A DNA stretch of 64,000 bases from an uncultured Nitrososphaeraceae archaeon. Its GTDB lineage: Archaea; Thermoproteota; Nitrososphaeria; Nitrososphaerales; Nitrososphaeraceae. Shown piece by piece: positions 3,054-9,137 of this stretch. The stretch is taken from assembly GCA_963837175.1 (NCBI GenBank), contig CAWIMJ010000012.1, positions 32,001-96,000 on the forward strand, written 5' to 3'. Made by a program: the position numbers and the translations under genes. Below the pieces are notes generated by a model that had not been told where the DNA came from, did no database searches, and saw only the letters and a list, made by a program, of their open reading frames with translations. Numbering within the stretch: position 1 is the first letter of the stretch; every line of letters starts with the position of its first letter.

Positions 3054-4541
3054 ATGGGATATTTGATATTAGATAGCGACGCTGTTTTTGTTATAAGAAT
3101 AGTACTATTTGCAACTTTAATTCTGACTTTCATATTATCATTTGGATCTTACTATTTACTACAGGAGAATCAAAAAAATGCTAATACTGCATTTGGTATA
3201 ACTGATTATCCTGAGAGTGCACTTCCTTCTTCTAAAGGACCGATTATAAAAGACACTAATTTAAAGGCAGAAATAGTTTTCAAAGGATTAACATACCCTA
3301 CTGGCATGGCATTTTTAGATCAAGATGATATTTTAGTTATAGAAAAAGACACTGGCATTGTAAGAAGAATCGTAAATGGTGTAATGTTACAAGAGCCTTT
3401 GCTTGATGTCAATGTTGCAACTCAAGGACATAGAGGTATGTTAGGTATTGCCGTTAGTAACATATCATCATCATTGGATCATAAAATTAGTAATAGTAGA
3501 ACTCATTTATCTAATACCAATATCACCAAATATGTTTTCTTGTACTATACTGCTGCTTCAACAGCAGATGGCGAAGATATTGCTGAAGGGAAACAACCCC
3601 TAGGCAATGTTGTATACAGATACGAATTTGAAAATAATAAGTTGATAAATCCTAAACTGTTACTAGACCTTCCTGCGATACCGGGAGCTATTGGAAATGG
3701 TGGTAAGATTCGACTCGGCCCACATGATAAGAATTTGTATATTACTATTGGTGGAGTTGGTATTAATGGCCACCAGACTAAAGCCCAAAACATTCAGAAT
3801 GGTAAAGACCCAGATGGAACAAGTGGTATACTCGTTATTACTCAGGATGGAAACCAAGCAATAAAAAATGGCAGTGGTATTCTTGGCAATAAAGATCCTA
3901 TAAACAAATACTATGCATATGGAATGTGGAATAGTTTTGGAATAGATTTTGATCCTATGACAGGAAAGCTATGGGATACAGAAAATGGGGTAGTATTTGG
4001 TGATGAAATCAACCTTGTTGAGCCAGGATTTAACAGTGGATGGAATAAAATTGATGGTATATGGCAAAGAGGATATGCAATAGAAGATACAGAGAACCAT
4101 GCGGTCTCATCACTACAGGAAGCAAATAATTTATTAGTAGACTTTGGTGGAAAAGGAAAATACAGTTCGCCTGAATTTACATGGTTCAATGATGTTGGTC
4201 CTACCGCAATTAAATTCTTCAATTCTGATAAATTAGGTAAAGAATATGAAAGCGATATATTCGTAGGTGATATTATCAATGGGAATATATACCACTTTGA
4301 ACTAGATCAACAAAGAACTGGATTATCACTATCACCTAATGGTACTCTTGTAGATAAAGTTGTAAGCAGTTACGATAAAAATTTTGATGAAATAATATTT
4401 GGCAAAGGATTTGGCGGTATTACTGATATACAGATCGGACCTGATGACGGTTATCTATATATTCTTACATTTGACAAAACACAAGGCACGATATATAGAA
4501 TAGTTCCTACTACAACAATAACTACTGCAGGGACAAACTAA
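3054..4541 (+). CDS. PQQ-dependent glucose/sorbosone dehydrogenase family beta-propeller protein, membrane anchored
   Basis: N-terminal TM helix; motifs RGMLGIA, GGKIRLGP, YAYGMWNSFGIDFDP, WDTENG...DEINLVEPGFNSGW, FGGITDIQIGPDDG. Confidence 0.9.
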   Translation: MGYLILDSDAVFVIRIVLFATLILTFILSFGSYYLLQENQKNANTAFGITDYPESALPSSKGPIIKDTNLKAEIVFKGLTYPTGMAFLDQDDILVIEKDTGIVRRIVNGVMLQEPLLDVNVATQGHRGMLGIAVSNISSSLDHKISNSRTHLSNTNITKYVFLYYTAASTADGEDIAEGKQPLGNVVYRYEFENNKLINPKLLLDLPAIPGAIGNGGKIRLGPHDKNLYITIGGVGINGHQTKAQNIQNGKDPDGTSGILVITQDGNQAIKNGSGILGNKDPINKYYAYGMWNSFGIDFDPMTGKLWDTENGVVFGDEINLVEPGFNSGWNKIDGIWQRGYAIEDTENHAVSSLQEANNLLVDFGGKGKYSSPEFTWFNDVGPTAIKFFNSDKLGKEYESDIFVGDIINGNIYHFELDQQRTGLSLSPNGTLVDKVVSSYDKNFDEIIFGKGFGGITDIQIGPDDGYLYILTFDKTQGTIYRIVPTTTITTAGTN

Positions 4542-4739
4542 CTCGATAAATTACAGGGACGTTTGTATACTTTAACCTCCTTTCTGGAATTTGAACCCGT
4601 TCATAGGTTGCACTCTAGAACTGATATTATTTATAAGCATATATAACTAATATCTTAGGACAAAAAAAGTCCCATATGTTTAGGGTAAAAATTGTTGTTG
4701 AGATTGGCATCTACTAAAACTAAAGATCTAAGTCAAGAT

Positions 4740-4982
4740 CTATTTTTCTGATTTTGGTTTATATCTCCTATTATTACTATCTTTTCTCCGCTCCTTGACA
4801 TTTCGTATATTTTTATCATAAGTATAATATTTATAGCCAAAAAAGGCAGCTAAACTAAAATTTGGTAAAGAGAACAACAAGAAAGCAAACGATGCTAAAA
4901 ACGCTGAAAGAACAATACCAAATCCCCCAACAGTCAGAGCTATTATTAAGATCAATCTAAGGTAGTTTTTTTGAATTGGCAA
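4740..4982 (-). CDS. Small membrane protein
   Basis: Two hydrophobic segments followed by a basic tail; 80 aa. Confidence 0.6.
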   Translation of the reverse strand: MPIQKNYLRLILIIALTVGGFGIVLSAFLASFAFLLFSLPNFSLAAFFGYKYYTYDKNIRNVKERRKDSNNRRYKPKSEK

Positions 4983-5824
4983 TTACTCAGAATAAAGTAA
5001 GAAAGACACACTACTATAAAGATATTTGTACATTTTGCATGTGCAATATTTTTTAGATATAATTTATCACTAGATTTATGTTTCCTTATCTAGAATTAAA
5101 AAACTAAAATTTTATATCAGAAAAGTGGAGAAACGTGTTTTATTTTTTATACACTGTCGCTCTTTTGCTTAGTGTTATCTGTGAGGATAATGATATAATG
5201 TCATCTTAAAAGTAGCTATTATCATATATATTTATGAAACATTTCAAAAGAAAGTTGCATGATACAACCATCAATTTTGTAATAAGAAAGTGACATTAAA
5301 TAATTTCTTTAATTATAGGATCAGCCCAAGATTGATGTTTTCCTAGCTACTATCTCTTTTTTAATTAATTCTCCTATGTCATAGAAGAAATGAGTCATGT
5401 CATAATACTTGAGAAGAATATCTACTGCAATAGTATATTTTAGATATGTCAACCACTGCTACACTGATATTACAATCTTACCATATTGTTGTATACGTAT
5501 TATACCTGCGTAAAAGATCTATATCTTTTCTCTCATAGTTCGGAAAAAAGTTAAATCCATAAGCAATAGTAATACTGTTTCTGTTATATAAAAAGAGATG
5601 ACGCAGCAATAACAGTAGTAGTATGCAACTGGACCATTCATTGAATGATTCTTCAATTAAAAATAATTGTAATCATAGCACCATTCTTAGTAATTATTAA
5701 TTTTTCGATATTGTCATACCAAATATGTTTCTATTAGAGATATTTTCTTTTGATGTTGTTGCTGCTGCTAAATTATTTTGATCGCTAAGCTACATCGCCA
5801 CTACAAAATAATAGAACATACCAA

Positions 5825-6037
5825 ATGATAATATACATTAGCATTACTAGTGACTATAATTATGGATTGATCTATTATCGTGTTGTATGTCCTGCATGTG
5901 AATCAGAATTCGTTAGTTATGAAAAGTATATTGATCATGTTTTCCAAAAACATGACAATCAACCTTCACTTCGAATGAAAGCTAAGATTATAAAAAAAGG
6001 AGACAATAATGATTGTTTGCAAACGGGAGAAACCTAA
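5825..6037 (+). CDS. Small C2H2 zinc-finger protein
   Basis: CPACESEFVSYEKYIDHVFQKH matches CxxC-x12-HxxxxH. The true start may be slightly downstream. Confidence 0.7.
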   Translation: MIIYISITSDYNYGLIYYRVVCPACESEFVSYEKYIDHVFQKHDNQPSLRMKAKIIKKGDNNDCLQTGET

Positions 6038-6196
6038 GGTAGATTTACTCCTTTTACATAGATTCTATTGCCTTTTTAGAAGTAATTTCATTTTGGAAAC
6101 CTTTCAGATAGTGACGAAAATTGTAAAGTGTTGTTTTATTCGTCGGTGTCAAATTTTATTGTCGATAGGCTTTTTTAATTTTAATTTTAATCTGTA

Positions 6197-6601
6197 TCAC
6201 TCTGCTCCAAGTAATCCTAATAGATCAAATTCTTCTGATGGTTTAGACTTTATTTCTGCGATTGAAATCCAATAGCCATCTGGATCCTCAATTATTGCAT
6301 GTTTGCCAAAAGATTCATTCTTTGGTTCCTTGACGAACTTGACTTTCTTTTCTTGTAGTTGCTTAGCAGTGGACTCAAGGTCACTAACCATGAAACCCAC
6401 TAATATTCCCATACCACTTTTCATTTTATCCTTGGCCTTCTTTGCTGGATGCAAAGCTAATGTTGTGTCTCTGTTAAAGAATTCCACCCAATCAGGAGAC
6501 TTTGTTTTGATAGGCAAGCCAAGTATATCTTCATAATATTTTACAGAAGCGTCTAGATCGGATACCAAGAGAATTATTGTACCAACTTTTCTAAACAACA
6601 A
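6197..6601 (-). CDS. VOC family (glyoxalase/bleomycin resistance) protein
   Basis: LLVSDLDASVKYYEDILGL, GFMVSDLE, FGKHAIIEDPDGYWISIAE. Confidence 0.9.
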   Translation of the reverse strand: MLFRKVGTIILLVSDLDASVKYYEDILGLPIKTKSPDWVEFFNRDTTLALHPAKKAKDKMKSGMGILVGFMVSDLESTAKQLQEKKVKFVKEPKNESFGKHAIIEDPDGYWISIAEIKSKPSEEFDLLGLLGAE

Positions 6602-6730
6602 TCTACAATTACACTATGAGAATTCTCTATATATTAAGAATATGATCCCATTAGATTAAAAATACCACATTATAACAAAAAGAAATTTATGATCAATAAA
6701 AAAGTTATACTATTTAATATGTAAATTTAT

Positions 6731-6862
6731 CCCTATAGGTTTAGCGAGATCCACATATCCTTATGCAGAAATATGGTTCCCTCACCTACCCTACAAGGTT
6801 TTCTGTACACTACTAAGATTCTCAGTAAGTCTTACCCTACTTCGTTTCCGTTTCGCGTACAG
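6731..6862 (-). ncRNA. Candidate structured non-coding RNA (two hairpin domains)
   Basis: GC-richer intergenic block. Minus-strand stems CUGUACGC/GUGUACAG, UACUGAG/CUUAGUA, CCUUGUAGG/CCUAUAGGG, GGUGAG/CUCGCU, CCAUAU/AUGUGG contain G-U pairs that form only on the minus strand. TATA-like box lies upstream. Confidence 0.5.
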
Positions 6863-6886
6863 ATAGAATTAATATTCACTTAAGAC

Positions 6887-6894
6887 TATATTAA
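6887..6894 (-). promoter_or_regulatory. Putative archaeal TATA box for the candidate ncRNA
   Basis: TTAATATA on the minus strand, 24 nt before the first paired base at 6862, which fits archaeal promoter spacing. Confidence 0.4.
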
Positions 6895-7631
6895 CATTGT
6901 AGATAATATTTCTATAACAATCGGTTCTGACAAAATTAATAAGATGATTAGTCATCATTCATTCAAATATATCGTTATTTATCACTAAGAACGCAATATC
7001 GAACGCAAACTGGAATTAAAGCTCAATAACTACCTAATAATTTGAGATAATGATCAATATTAATATACAGATGTATTCAAACAATAATCATAACTATAAT
7101 ATTATTCAAATCGTCATGAACAAGGCTACTAAACAAGTTGATTGGCGAGATTAAATTATATGAACTATTGGTTATGGTATTTATAATCACTATTACATTG
7201 ATGACACTTTCAAATTAAGCCAACCACCCAATACAATTAAGAGATATTCAATATTTAAAGAAATTATCGAGGGCTATCGTTAAGGGATAAATATACAGAC
7301 ATCCCTACTCTATGAATACAAAAATGTTGTATCTTTTATTTCTCCTCCTCAAAAAGAAAGCATAAAGATATCTGAAAAATCAGGCTCTGATGAAAATACT
7401 AAGGTTCAAGAATTATAGTGGACCAAAGATTCTGTAATAAGTTAGATTTACATCTTAATACAAATGTCACATAATGACTCAAGTTTGTAGAATAGTCCAG
7501 TTGTTGCATACAGTACTAATAATATCTAGATAAAATAATGATAGATTTACATTACACAATAAGAAAAGGTATAAAGAAGTAAAAAATACGAGGTATAGTA
7601 ATACATATGCATAGGAGGAAGAATTGTTCTG

Positions 7632-9137
7632 ATGGATAAGGTATTATCATCCAGCGATAATAATAAGTGCGCATTATGTGGCAAAATATTACCATTAACT
7701 AATCAGGACAAATTCGACACAAGTAAAGAAGAATTAATTATTGATGGAATTCTTTATCGTTTTGACGCAAAAGATTGCGCTAACATGTTTAAACGTTTTA
7801 GGAGTGTATATGGTAATAAATTTAGCGAACTTCTAGGTCTAGAACAGTATATTTCTGATCCTTTTTGGAATAAAGTAATTCCTAGTGAACAAGAGATTAG
7901 TGAAATTGAAAAAGAAGCAACTGCAAAATCAGAAGATACTATACTACAGATTATCCGAGATCCTATTGAAGTACAGAAACTTGGCTTTGAACTTATTAGA
8001 TCTGCCAATGAGGAAGTATTGATAATATTTTCAACTGCTAATGCATTCCACAGACAAGAACGTATTGGAGGGATTCAATTGTTAAGGGAGGTAATCCCAA
8101 CAAAAAGAGAACTGAATATTAGAATCCTGACTCCATCAGATGAGAGAATAAAAGAAACCTCTTCAGAATTACAACATCAACTAAAAAAAGTTGAAGTTAG
8201 ACATGTAGAAGAATCGCTACAAACAAAGGTCACAGTTTTAGTTGTGGATAGAAAATACTCATTGGCTTTAGAACTCAAAGATGATACGAAGGATTCTGTA
8301 CATGAGGCGATAGGACTTGCTACTTATTCTAATAGTAAATCAACTGTAATATCTTATGTATCAATATTTGAAAGTCTTTGGAAACAAGTAGAGCTAATTG
8401 AACAGGTAACTAAGCTTATTGAAAAATCAAAAGATGAAGAAAAGATGCATAAAGAATTTATCAATATAGCTGCTCACGAATTAAGATCTCCTATTCAACC
8501 TATAGTTGGATTAGCTGAAATCCTTAGATCTAGAAAAGAAATAGAAGTTGTAAAGCAGGAGGAATTACTATCAATTATTATCAGAAATGCAAAAAGGCTG
8601 AAGGAACTTACAGAGAATATTTTAGATGTTACGAGAATTGAAAATCAGTCGCTAAAGCTACATAAGGAGTTAGTCGATATAGATGATTTGGTGGCTAATG
8701 CATTAGAAGACATTAAAACTCAAACAGATTATAAACAGAATATAAAATTAATATATAATGATTCTAAAAAAGAATCTCCTCTATTTGTAGAAGCAGACAG
8801 AGGAAGATTAACTCAAGTTATTTCCAATTTACTTAGTAATGCAATTAAATTTACCAAAGAAGGTACGATAACAGTAATTACAGAAGAAAAAAGAAGCAAT
8901 AATATCGATTTATTAATAATTAGAGTTAAGGATAATGGCACTGGTATTAATGAAGATATTATGCCTATATTATTCGAAAAATTCGCAACAAGATCAGAAA
9001 AAGGTATGGGATTAGGTCTTTTTGTATCCAAAAACATAATTGAAGCCCATGGTGGCAGAATATGGGCTGAAAATAATGCTGATGGAGAAAAAGGAGCTAC
9101 ATTTACATTTAGTCTACCCTTATTATCAACCAAATAA
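7632..9137 (+). CDS. Soluble sensor histidine kinase with N-terminal TRASH/YHS-like metal-binding motif
   Basis: H-box FINIAAHELRSP, N-box NLLSNAIKFT, G1 DNGTGI, G2 GMGLGL. N-terminal CALC...IDGILYRFDAKDCANMF. Central TrmB/PLD-like region. Confidence 0.92.
   Translation: MDKVLSSSDNNKCALCGKILPLTNQDKFDTSKEELIIDGILYRFDAKDCANMFKRFRSVYGNKFSELLGLEQYISDPFWNKVIPSEQEISEIEKEATAKSEDTILQIIRDPIEVQKLGFELIRSANEEVLIIFSTANAFHRQERIGGIQLLREVIPTKRELNIRILTPSDERIKETSSELQHQLKKVEVRHVEESLQTKVTVLVVDRKYSLALELKDDTKDSVHEAIGLATYSNSKSTVISYVSIFESLWKQVELIEQVTKLIEKSKDEEKMHKEFINIAAHELRSPIQPIVGLAEILRSRKEIEVVKQEELLSIIIRNAKRLKELTENILDVTRIENQSLKLHKELVDIDDLVANALEDIKTQTDYKQNIKLIYNDSKKESPLFVEADRGRLTQVISNLLSNAIKFTKEGTITVITEEKRSNNIDLLIIRVKDNGTGINEDIMPILFEKFATRSEKGMGLGLFVSKNIIEAHGGRIWAENNADGEKGATFTFSLPLLSTK

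Follow-up and report, generated by a model that had tools for sequence, protein, structure and literature searches.

The 64,000-nucleotide (nt) stretch of DNA analysed here, referred to as the window, comes from an uncultured Nitrososphaeraceae archaeon (assembly GCA_963837175.1, contig CAWIMJ010000012.1, positions 32,001–96,000 of the forward strand) and carries on its minus strand a gene for a small structured RNA of about 141 nt. The RNA is a member of an uncatalogued family restricted to Nitrososphaeraceae, which are ammonia oxidizers of soil, and is encoded by a free-standing gene with its own promoter, a reading to which we assign a probability of roughly 0.9. The evidence consists of a two-domain fold maintained by covariation in other genera, a TATA-like box kept at the same distance in relatives, model matches confined to one family, and RNA-library contigs that contain the sequence. 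The novelty claimed here concerns the RNA family, not a mechanism. All coordinates are window positions.

The RNA gene and its fold

The gene stands out from its surroundings as a block with a GC content of 0.41 (6750–6849) between flanks of 0.20–0.25, and no open reading frame (ORF) of at least 40 amino acids (aa) is found on either strand in the roughly 1 kb between 6602 and 7546. An earlier annotation made from the DNA letters by a model, hereafter the original prediction, had singled out this GC-richer, ORF-free block in an AT-rich spacer as a structured RNA, and the composition and ORF content agree with that description. On the minus strand the predicted fold has an energy of -53.0 kcal/mol (z = -6.13), which is equalled by none of 200 shuffled sequences. 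The corresponding values for the plus strand are -22.8 kcal/mol and z = -0.58, and here 52 of 200 shuffles reach the same energy. The stems contain many G-U pairs that would read A-C on the opposite strand. The preference for the minus strand, which had been proposed from the G-U pairs, is thus borne out both by these pairs and by the comparison with shuffled sequence that was suggested at the same time. The elements of the gene and its predicted fold are as follows, where D1 and D2 denote the two domains, and P1 to P3 the helices of D1.

6724–6864, minus strand: small RNA, ~141 nt, with the predicted 5′ end near 6864 and the 3′ end at ~6724 or further, at a T run
6865–6724, minus strand: RNA gene sequence, beginning UAUCUGUACGC and ending CCUAUAGGGAUAAAU
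6802–6863, minus strand: domain 1 (D1), an extended hairpin closed by UCUGUACGC/GUGUACAGA
6863–6855 with 6810–6802, minus strand: P1 of D1, 9 base pairs (bp), followed by an internal loop, P2, a GAA/GAA-type loop and P3
6850–6854, minus strand: 5′ strand of the lower D1 internal loop, GAAAC (consensus GAAAA), with two invariant adenines (columns 13 and 14 of alignment A4, see below)
6811–6816, minus strand: 3′ strand of the lower D1 internal loop, UUAGUA, identical to the consensus; last A in 33/33 and preceding U in 31/33 rows of A4
6825–6840, minus strand: P3 hairpin of D1 (GUAGG, loop GUAAGA, CUUAC), helix 99.4% paired
6799–6801, minus strand: linker AAA between D1 and D2, from the sequence and the predicted fold
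6731–6798, minus strand: domain 2 (D2), a long interrupted hairpin with lower stem 6798–6790 pairing with 6739–6731
6887–6894, minus strand: TATA-like box TTAATATA, centred ~26 nt upstream of the predicted start A6864
6901–6913, minus strand: upstream element AGAAATATTATCT, a near-palindrome (11/13 positions) just upstream of the transcription factor B recognition element (BRE)/TATA region
6698–6703, minus strand: six consecutive Ts, the first stretch of at least four after D2 and a candidate oligo-T terminator

Above its lower stem, D2 continues with a GUA/AAA loop, a middle helix GGUGAG/CUCGCU, a GGAA/GGA-type loop and an apical stem-loop. The two-domain architecture anticipated in the original prediction is present, here with D1 at 6863–6802, the linker AAA at 6801–6799 and D2 at 6798–6731, and the three D2 helices named in the prediction are all present in the minimum-free-energy fold and kept by covariation in relatives. 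As for D1, the prediction had placed a CG-GAAA-CG hairpin and a UACUGAG/CUUAGUA hairpin inside the domain, and this inner fold has to be abandoned since relatives conserve one extended hairpin instead. It had also pointed to a repeat of GUAGGGUA that could allow alternative pairing. The repeat is indeed present (6840–6833 and 6794–6787), but the alternative pairing is unsupported because the second GUAGGGUA is not conserved and many relatives read GUAGGUUUAGG in D1 where the window copy has GUAGGGUA.

Conservation and covariation

The fold was compared with two alignments. Alignment A4 holds 33 sequences, and A6 contains 61 rows, 51 of them distinct, mostly from metagenomes and other metagenome-assembled genomes (MAGs), with a few loci that overlap those in A4. 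In A4, 95.1% of 1343 cells are standard pairs and double changes are seen in 30 of the 42 pairs; the corresponding figures for A6 are 95.9% and 24 of 42. Not one of 500 column shuffles reaches any of five measures for A4, and none of 500 is as high for A6, but these shuffle figures are not probabilities because both alignments were fitted to the covariance model and the member sequences are related. When the partner columns in A4 are slid by 1–3 positions as a control, pairing drops to 30–55%. Judged from the aligned sequences, the drop in the slid controls and the abundance of compensatory changes clearly point to a structure under selection. The check for conservation and covariation in relatives that accompanied the original prediction thus returned members in other genera, with the doubly changed pairs given above. 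Two of the genomes used are marked unpublished: G093 supplies a row of A4 and A5 (L027), and G298 a row of A6 (L064). Through them, one genome each enters the counts of 24/151 and 8/39 reported below, and no conclusion rests on either.

The D1 fold kept in relatives consists of P1 (9 bp), an internal loop, P2 (GGAUA/UAUCC, ~5 bp), a GAA/GAA loop, P3 (GUAGG/CUUAC, 5 bp) and a 6-nt loop. The three helices are 98%, 87% and 99% paired in A4, with double changes in 13 of 18 pairs, for example the compensatory exchange of GUAGG/CUUAC for GCAAG/CUUGC in P3; P2 is weak in the window copy. In D2, helices 4–7 are 93–96% paired and the apical helix is doubly changed in all of its 10 pairs (A4), and A6 agrees.

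The unpaired letters that show no variation are internal-loop adenines (A4 columns 13, 14, 45, 58 and 105, each 33/33). In the consensus, the lower loop of D1 places GAA(AA) opposite (UU)AGUA, followed by two possible A-U pairs, and the other internal loops are CGAA/GAAA, GUA/GAG or GUA/AAA, and GGAA/GGA. The lower D1 loop can be described as loop-E-like and no more, an assignment that is tentative because the would-be bulged G varies. The apical loop of D1 occurs in at least five forms (GUAAGA, UUUAGG, AUAAGA and others), and that of D2, CUGAAUAAG, is well kept in the AT-rich genera and different in the GC-rich genus. The linker is usually A-rich and 3–5 nt long. In one locus (L037:1501–1666, minus strand, genome G116) it is expanded by ~20 nt of UAC-type repeats (CUACUACUACUAUACUACU), which indicates that the spacing between D1 and D2 is not critical.

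Two further structural proposals were considered and rejected. Pairing of the D1 apical loop with the linker in a pseudoknot fits some sequences (GGGUA/UACCC in L008, GGAUU/AAUCC in L038, and UUU-loop types with AAA), but its register shifts, about half of the sequences misfit, and it competes with P3 and the first D2 pairs. Mimicry of the sarcin-ricin loop (SRL) by the D2 string GAGAGGAAC was discarded because these letters lie in a covarying helix.

Promoter, upstream element and predicted transcript ends

A covariance-model match covers 6725–6865 with a score of 131.9 bits (E 1.7e-26), and BLAST-type homology in other genera extends from exactly 6865 to near 6729. Archaeal promoters have a TATA box around -26. 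The box TTAATATA, already noted in the original prediction as part of an own promoter, ends 22 nt before the first conserved letter at 6864, and a box of the TAATAAG, TTAATA(A/T)AG or TAATATAT type recurs with this spacing in almost every one of 66 distinct upstream sequences. At the other end, archaeal RNA polymerase stops at oligo-T, and relatives have T runs of 4–5 within ~10–30 nt after D2, short in some copies.

Most clades have an element of the form AGAA...T(T/A)TC between about -55 and -38. Of 61 distinct upstream sequences, 22 contain the pattern GAA-N4-9-T[TC]C, whereas shuffles average 3.0 and never exceed 7, an enrichment that reflects conservation and not independent recurrence because the upstream sequences are related. 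A palindromic operator was tried and rejected, as perfect 5+5 palindromes at -62 to -35 number 6 compared with 5.9 in shuffles, and only the AGAA...TTC-like element remains. The window copy of the element at 6901–6913 is a possible transcription-factor site, and its conservation at -55 to -38 suggests that a transcription factor may control the RNA family.

Distribution and copy number

In a DNA search of 41 related genomes the stretch was found in 10, including the window genome. Three covariance models were used: R1 built from 10 sequences, R2 from 33 sequences, and R3 from D1 only. R1 has matches in 24 of 151 Nitrososphaeraceae genomes, distributed over 9 of 18 genera, with one copy in the window genome and up to seven in others (G021; five in G048, and four each in G058 and G078). 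Carriers of the gene include the complete genomes G020 and G122. Across the order, R2 matches 5 of 151 sampled genomes, all five Nitrososphaeraceae, and gives no match in 127 genomes of 19 other families. Laxer filters, applied to the GC-rich genus g15, place the RNA in 8 of 39 genomes, and several genomes that are 96–99% complete are without it, which makes the RNA accessory and not a housekeeping component.

A 20-letter D2 pattern occurs at 14 places in a genome contig collection, 13 of which were confirmed by the model and carry the titles of Nitrososphaeraceae or Thermoproteota MAGs; the fourteenth, in a Porphyromonas MAG (L059), was not confirmed and is regarded as a chance match. The same pattern in metagenomes returned 41 contigs, all 41 of them model-confirmed full-length members, and two pattern scans of viral contigs gave no matches. 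In total the family comprises 73 distinct sequences. The proximity of copies to contig ends was also considered as a sign of repeats and dismissed: 8 of 49 R1 matches lie within 600 nt of a contig start, about what chance would give for fragmented MAGs. Taken together with the conserved upstream element, the patchy multi-copy distribution suggests that the RNA may serve a regulated accessory function.

Some members deviate from the two-domain form. Genome G020 has two single-hairpin relatives of D1, each of ~75 nt and behind its own TATA-like box (L071:4440–4512, plus strand; L070:1554–1628, minus strand), in which the GAAA / AGUAG internal loop is kept, as is an apical loop UUUCGG, and P1, P2 and P3 are all changed. 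The distance between one of them and the two-domain copy, which lies on the other strand, is 10.8 kb. In G021, two copies of 116–117 nt in total (L014:1469–1584, minus strand; L015:1501–1617, plus strand) have the upper two thirds of D2 replaced by a short hairpin, and share ~50 nt of downstream sequence. Because of these D1-only relatives and shortened-D2 copies, D1 looks like the core of the RNA. A wider D1-like superfamily was not obtained with R3, which found only known copies (G000, G020, G122 and G021) and a weak match in G007 (28 bits) that lacks the GAA/AGUAG loop.

Presence in RNA libraries

In RNA libraries the sequence appears as a separate fragment. A small share of a 601-nt query was detected in six RNA runs, which belong to four studies, and four of these runs were placed on the window through Logan contigs. 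From a soil library (X15), contigs cover 6744–6837 and 6809–6850 in addition to shorter pieces, together 6744–6850; records 2, 3 and 5 have no differing letters and word depths of 281–650. One contig from a rhizosphere library (X17) covers 6786–6864 at a depth of 366, also with no differing letters. All four fragment ends, including the one at 6864, run directly into adapter-like letters, which we take to be Illumina adapters. Because the last four genomic letters (AGAT, plus strand) equal the adapter start, the true fragment end lies at 6860–6864, and the end of the X17 contig coincides with the predicted 5′ end at 6864.

The two other placed runs, X16 and X20, gave only low-depth contigs from the region of the downstream VOC/glyoxalase gene (6500–6646 and 6500–6586, respectively). 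The X16 contig includes the start of that gene and 45 nt upstream of its start codon at 6601, consistent with a short 5′ leader belonging to the VOC gene itself. The stretches 6647–6743 and 6865–7100 are free of contigs in all four runs, which is not usable as evidence for transcript boundaries.

Tests against known RNA classes

No match to any of the 4227 models of Rfam 15, among them those for C/D and H/ACA RNAs, riboswitches and ribozymes, was found in the whole window at gathering thresholds. With E ≤ 10, the only match in 6600–7050 is CRISPR-DR43 (17.2 bits against a threshold of 35), which lies outside the RNA at 6908–6936 and is attributed to chance, and six homologous loci gave none with E ≤ 1. 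ARAGORN detected no transfer RNA (tRNA) or transfer-messenger RNA in 5000–9000. At the thresholds used, these results agree with the original prediction, which had recognized no signature of tRNA, 5S, signal recognition particle (SRP) RNA or RNase P RNA.

With respect to box H/ACA guides, ACA never follows directly after either stem in the 33 rows of A4 or the 51 distinct rows of A6. The letters after D1 are AAAC, GAAC, GAAA and similar, and those after D2 are GAUU, AUAAA, GGAU and similar; a looser ANA (AAA or AUA) follows the stems in some rows, and ACA letters that occur within stems are paired and lost through covariation. A kink-turn (K-turn) has a 3-nt bulge followed by tandem G-A pairs and binds L7Ae. 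By inspection of the consensus and structure against this rule, no K-turn or K-loop is readable: the upper loops are symmetric (CGAA/GAAA) or of the GGAA/GGA form, with a bulge of at most 1 nt. Among orthologues and paralogues alike, no unpaired letters are better conserved than those of the loop strands. Box C/D sRNAs have a C box (RUGAUGA) and a D box (CUGA) that form a K-turn. A C box (RUGAUGA or UGAUGA) is found in none of the 73 distinct family sequences, and CUGA, present in 41 of them, is located inside the D2 apical stem-loop.

Genes surrounding the RNA

In the window, the RNA gene is flanked by a VOC/glyoxalase gene (6601–6197, minus strand) and, on the other side, by a divergent histidine kinase gene (7632–9137, plus strand). 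The VOC gene follows the RNA only in the window genome and its closest relative, G003. Elsewhere the downstream position is taken by AbrB+PIN genes, an arginine decarboxylase-like gene, a zinc-ribbon protein gene, a gene on the opposite strand, or nothing. Among 94 loci, 40 have a same-strand ATG-initiated ORF of at least 35 aa that starts within 230 nt, and the largest homologous group of these has four members. Histidine kinase neighbours were seen at 4 of 33 loci; such genes are common in these genomes, and no meaning is attached to them.

One protein family, here named c2, has no Pfam match, carries a conserved GAGPIDV(V/L)W motif, and often occurs as a tandem pair (examples are L034:1700–2350, L034:2301–2771 and L036:272–769, all on the minus strand). 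It adjoins the RNA in two genera (G020 and G149) and is located elsewhere in the genome in G122. As an obligatory partner c2 was rejected, since 15 of 151 genomes carry it, nine of those with the RNA, and the window genome is without it. At locus L071 (G020:C1:934000–953900), co-directional genes encode a universal stress protein and two c2 paralogues, followed by the RNA, a C2H2+DUF2795 protein and a DUF2795 protein, and at other loci a peroxiredoxin-like or VOC gene is found near the RNA. A stress-type gene neighbourhood is suggestive at most.

In G021, two RNA copies each have a convergent family-B DNA polymerase gene that is divided into two ORFs (L144:6940–9384 and L145:9992–12012, both plus strand). 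L144 also contains three RadA/Rad51 fragments, and L145 a PriX-like gene. These loci may have arisen by segmental duplication or be what is left of an element.

In the window itself, the ~600 nt of AT-rich, ORF-free DNA upstream of the RNA promoter (6921–7525) has no counterpart in G003, where ~420 nt of unrelated sequence takes its place. On the far side of the VOC gene, 1.6 kb (4541–6197) contain small ORFs only (43–88 aa), one of which (70 aa, 5825–6037) gives a weak C2H2 zinc-finger-like match. Small zinc-finger or zinc-ribbon ORFs are found near the RNA at several other loci too.

Possible function

Based on the conserved features, we tentatively favour, at somewhat less than even odds, a trans-acting RNA particle that binds protein. 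Transcription would start from the TATA/BRE promoter of the gene, possibly controlled through the conserved element just upstream, and the RNA would act in trans as a stable folded particle, in which D1 would be the core and D2 an add-on. The purine-rich internal loops (GAA vs AGUA, GAA vs GAA, GUA vs GAG/AAA, and GGAA vs GGA), and not a long single-stranded seed, would be recognized, most likely by a protein, and the role of the RNA could be that of a scaffold, a decoy or a small ribonucleoprotein. Binding of protein, or tertiary contacts, are favoured over a seed because of the invariant loop adenines, the varied apical loops and the 3–5 nt linker, and action in trans is indicated by the differences in neighbouring genes between loci. 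We give an even chance to a more far-reaching proposal, in which this RNA would be the first member of a novel class of archaeal RNA particles, abundant, accessory and multi-copy in soil ammonia oxidizers, with loop-E-like loops that recruit protein or dock mutually to serve a purpose not met with in any catalogued RNA. If this is true, roles such as sequestration of a regulator, a stress-linked role or catalysis come into consideration, and the family would be the first lineage-specific structured non-coding RNA (ncRNA) defined for Nitrososphaeraceae.

Several observations weigh against this interpretation or the evidence behind it. The kinship of the sequences inflates the shuffle statistics. 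The library contigs give neither strand, level nor 3′ end, and carry-over of DNA is not formally excluded. The lower D1 loop is tentatively compared with the AGUA/GAA consensus of the loop-E/sarcin-ricin module, and the would-be bulged-G position differs in roughly one third of the rows (GCUA, GCCA, ACUA, AAUA). No neighbouring gene recurs across the loci and no partner protein was identified; c2 is missing from the window genome and from 15 of the 24 RNA-carrying genomes. Furthermore, sibling copies behind a shared upstream element are a hallmark of base-pairing small RNAs (sRNAs) too.

This last point leads to the alternative that the siblings, under one regulator, are regulatory sRNAs that pair with messenger RNAs (mRNAs) via the apical loops or linker, in the manner of bacterial sibling sRNAs and of Methanosarcina sRNA154. 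The 3–7 copies in some genomes, the conserved element upstream of the TATA box, the variable gene context, which fits action in trans, and the well-kept D2 loop of the AT-rich genera would agree with such a function. However, the RNA has no long conserved single-stranded stretch, the linker is short, and the invariant letters are in internal loops, whereas the apical loop of D1 has at least five forms and that of D2 is not the same in the GC-rich genus. We consider base pairing of this kind unlikely. A derivation from mobile elements, with the RNA as guide or scaffold of a transposon nuclease, as a small non-autonomous element, or as an integration target, could explain the patchy occurrence within one genus (8/39) and the several copies in some genomes, and G021 copies have ~140 nt of upstream sequence in common, with the split polymerase genes adjoining two of them. 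But viral contigs gave no matches, the flanks that were read contain no transposase or integrase, and most neighbours are ordinary chromosomal genes. The TnpB zinc-ribbon PF07282 is present in 40 of the 151 family genomes and missing from the window genome, g14 (0/5) and g10 (0/2), all of which carry the RNA, and no tnpB-type ORF was found in the flanks of 33 loci. A link to TnpB guide RNAs was for this reason rejected, and an origin in mobile elements is in general improbable.

Of the three readings offered in the original prediction, that of a new archaeal sRNA has held, with a conserved promoter, strong covariation, no Rfam family, and RNA-library contigs on this stretch only. The other two, a leader of the VOC gene and an atypical H/ACA-like guide, fail because there is neither a conserved neighbouring gene nor an ACA box. 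A cis-acting 5′ leader, riboswitch-like or attenuator, of the downstream gene (here VOC, 6601–6197) would be compatible with the ~14 of 33 loci where a same-strand ORF starts within ~200 nt after the RNA, and with the short T runs after D2 in some copies. Against this stand the unrelated downstream genes (the VOC gene recurs only in the closest relative, and the largest downstream family has four members in 94 loci), at least eight loci with an opposite-strand gene downstream, and the VOC mRNA contigs of X16 and X20, which reach 6646 at most. The leader is already largely refuted and highly improbable. Each domain does resemble a unit of a two-hairpin pseudouridylation guide of the H/ACA type, being built from a ~9-bp lower stem and an upper stem separated by an internal loop, and the size and own promoter fit as well. 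Nevertheless, the stems are never followed by ACA, no K-turn or K-loop is readable, the loop strands are conserved in paralogues where variable ones would be looked for in guides, and near-complete genomes of genus g15 do without the RNA, and a guide of this type is most improbable. Two helical domains with conserved purine-rich loops, and invariant adenines that suit tertiary contacts, would also be found in a catalytic or ligand-binding RNA, i.e., a self-cleaving ribozyme or a trans aptamer with domains that dock via internal loops, as in two-domain docking RNAs such as the hairpin ribozyme. However, no known ribozyme or riboswitch is matched (E ≤ 10 at the window site, E ≤ 1 at six loci), D1-only and D2-shortened copies exist, and a conserved cleavage-site signature was not identified, which leaves this function, too, very improbable.

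Comparison with known systems

Literature searches returned no description of this RNA, and almost nothing on Nitrososphaeraceae ncRNAs beyond the universal ones. To our knowledge, no orphan structured RNA motif has been described for Nitrososphaeraceae. In PMC13475601, the passages on ncRNA concern SRP RNA and RNase P RNA of N. viennensis only. Soil Nitrososphaeraceae are major nitrifiers, and the family offers a handle on RNA-based regulation in these organisms. It also provides a marker for the annotation of genomes and metatranscriptomes, considering its 73 distinct sequences and the high word depth in two RNA libraries.

Archaeal box H/ACA guides, for example of the Pyrococcus Pf9 type, consist of one to three hairpins of ~65–70 nt with a large internal loop, and resemble the Nitrososphaeraceae RNA in being stand-alone genes with their own promoters and in having hairpins composed of a lower stem, an internal loop and an upper stem. 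Unlike these guides, the Nitrososphaeraceae RNA has no ACA after the stems, no readable K-turn, conserved loops, a patchy distribution and no Rfam match. Similarities are also noted to loop E and the sarcin-ricin motif in 5S and 23S ribosomal RNA, in D1 as GAA opposite AGUA with invariant adenines, and in D2 as GUA opposite GAG or AAA. The resemblance is confined to a local motif in which the bulged-G position varies, and neither the three-way junction of 5S RNA nor the SRL hairpin is present; GAGAGGAAC of D2 recalls the SRL, yet sits inside a covarying helix.

With the orphan structured motifs of the Weinberg type that comparative genomics has contributed to Rfam, the RNA shares its orphan status, a definition by covariation and restriction to a lineage; unlike them, it is matched by none of the 4227 Rfam 15 models. 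The sibling sRNAs of bacteria (Qrr, csRNA, LhrC) and the sRNA154 of Methanosarcina likewise form small multigene families with own promoters, a shared upstream element and varying contexts. A difference lies in what is kept: the sibling sRNAs carry conserved single-stranded seeds, whereas the Nitrososphaeraceae RNA conserves its internal loops and helices.

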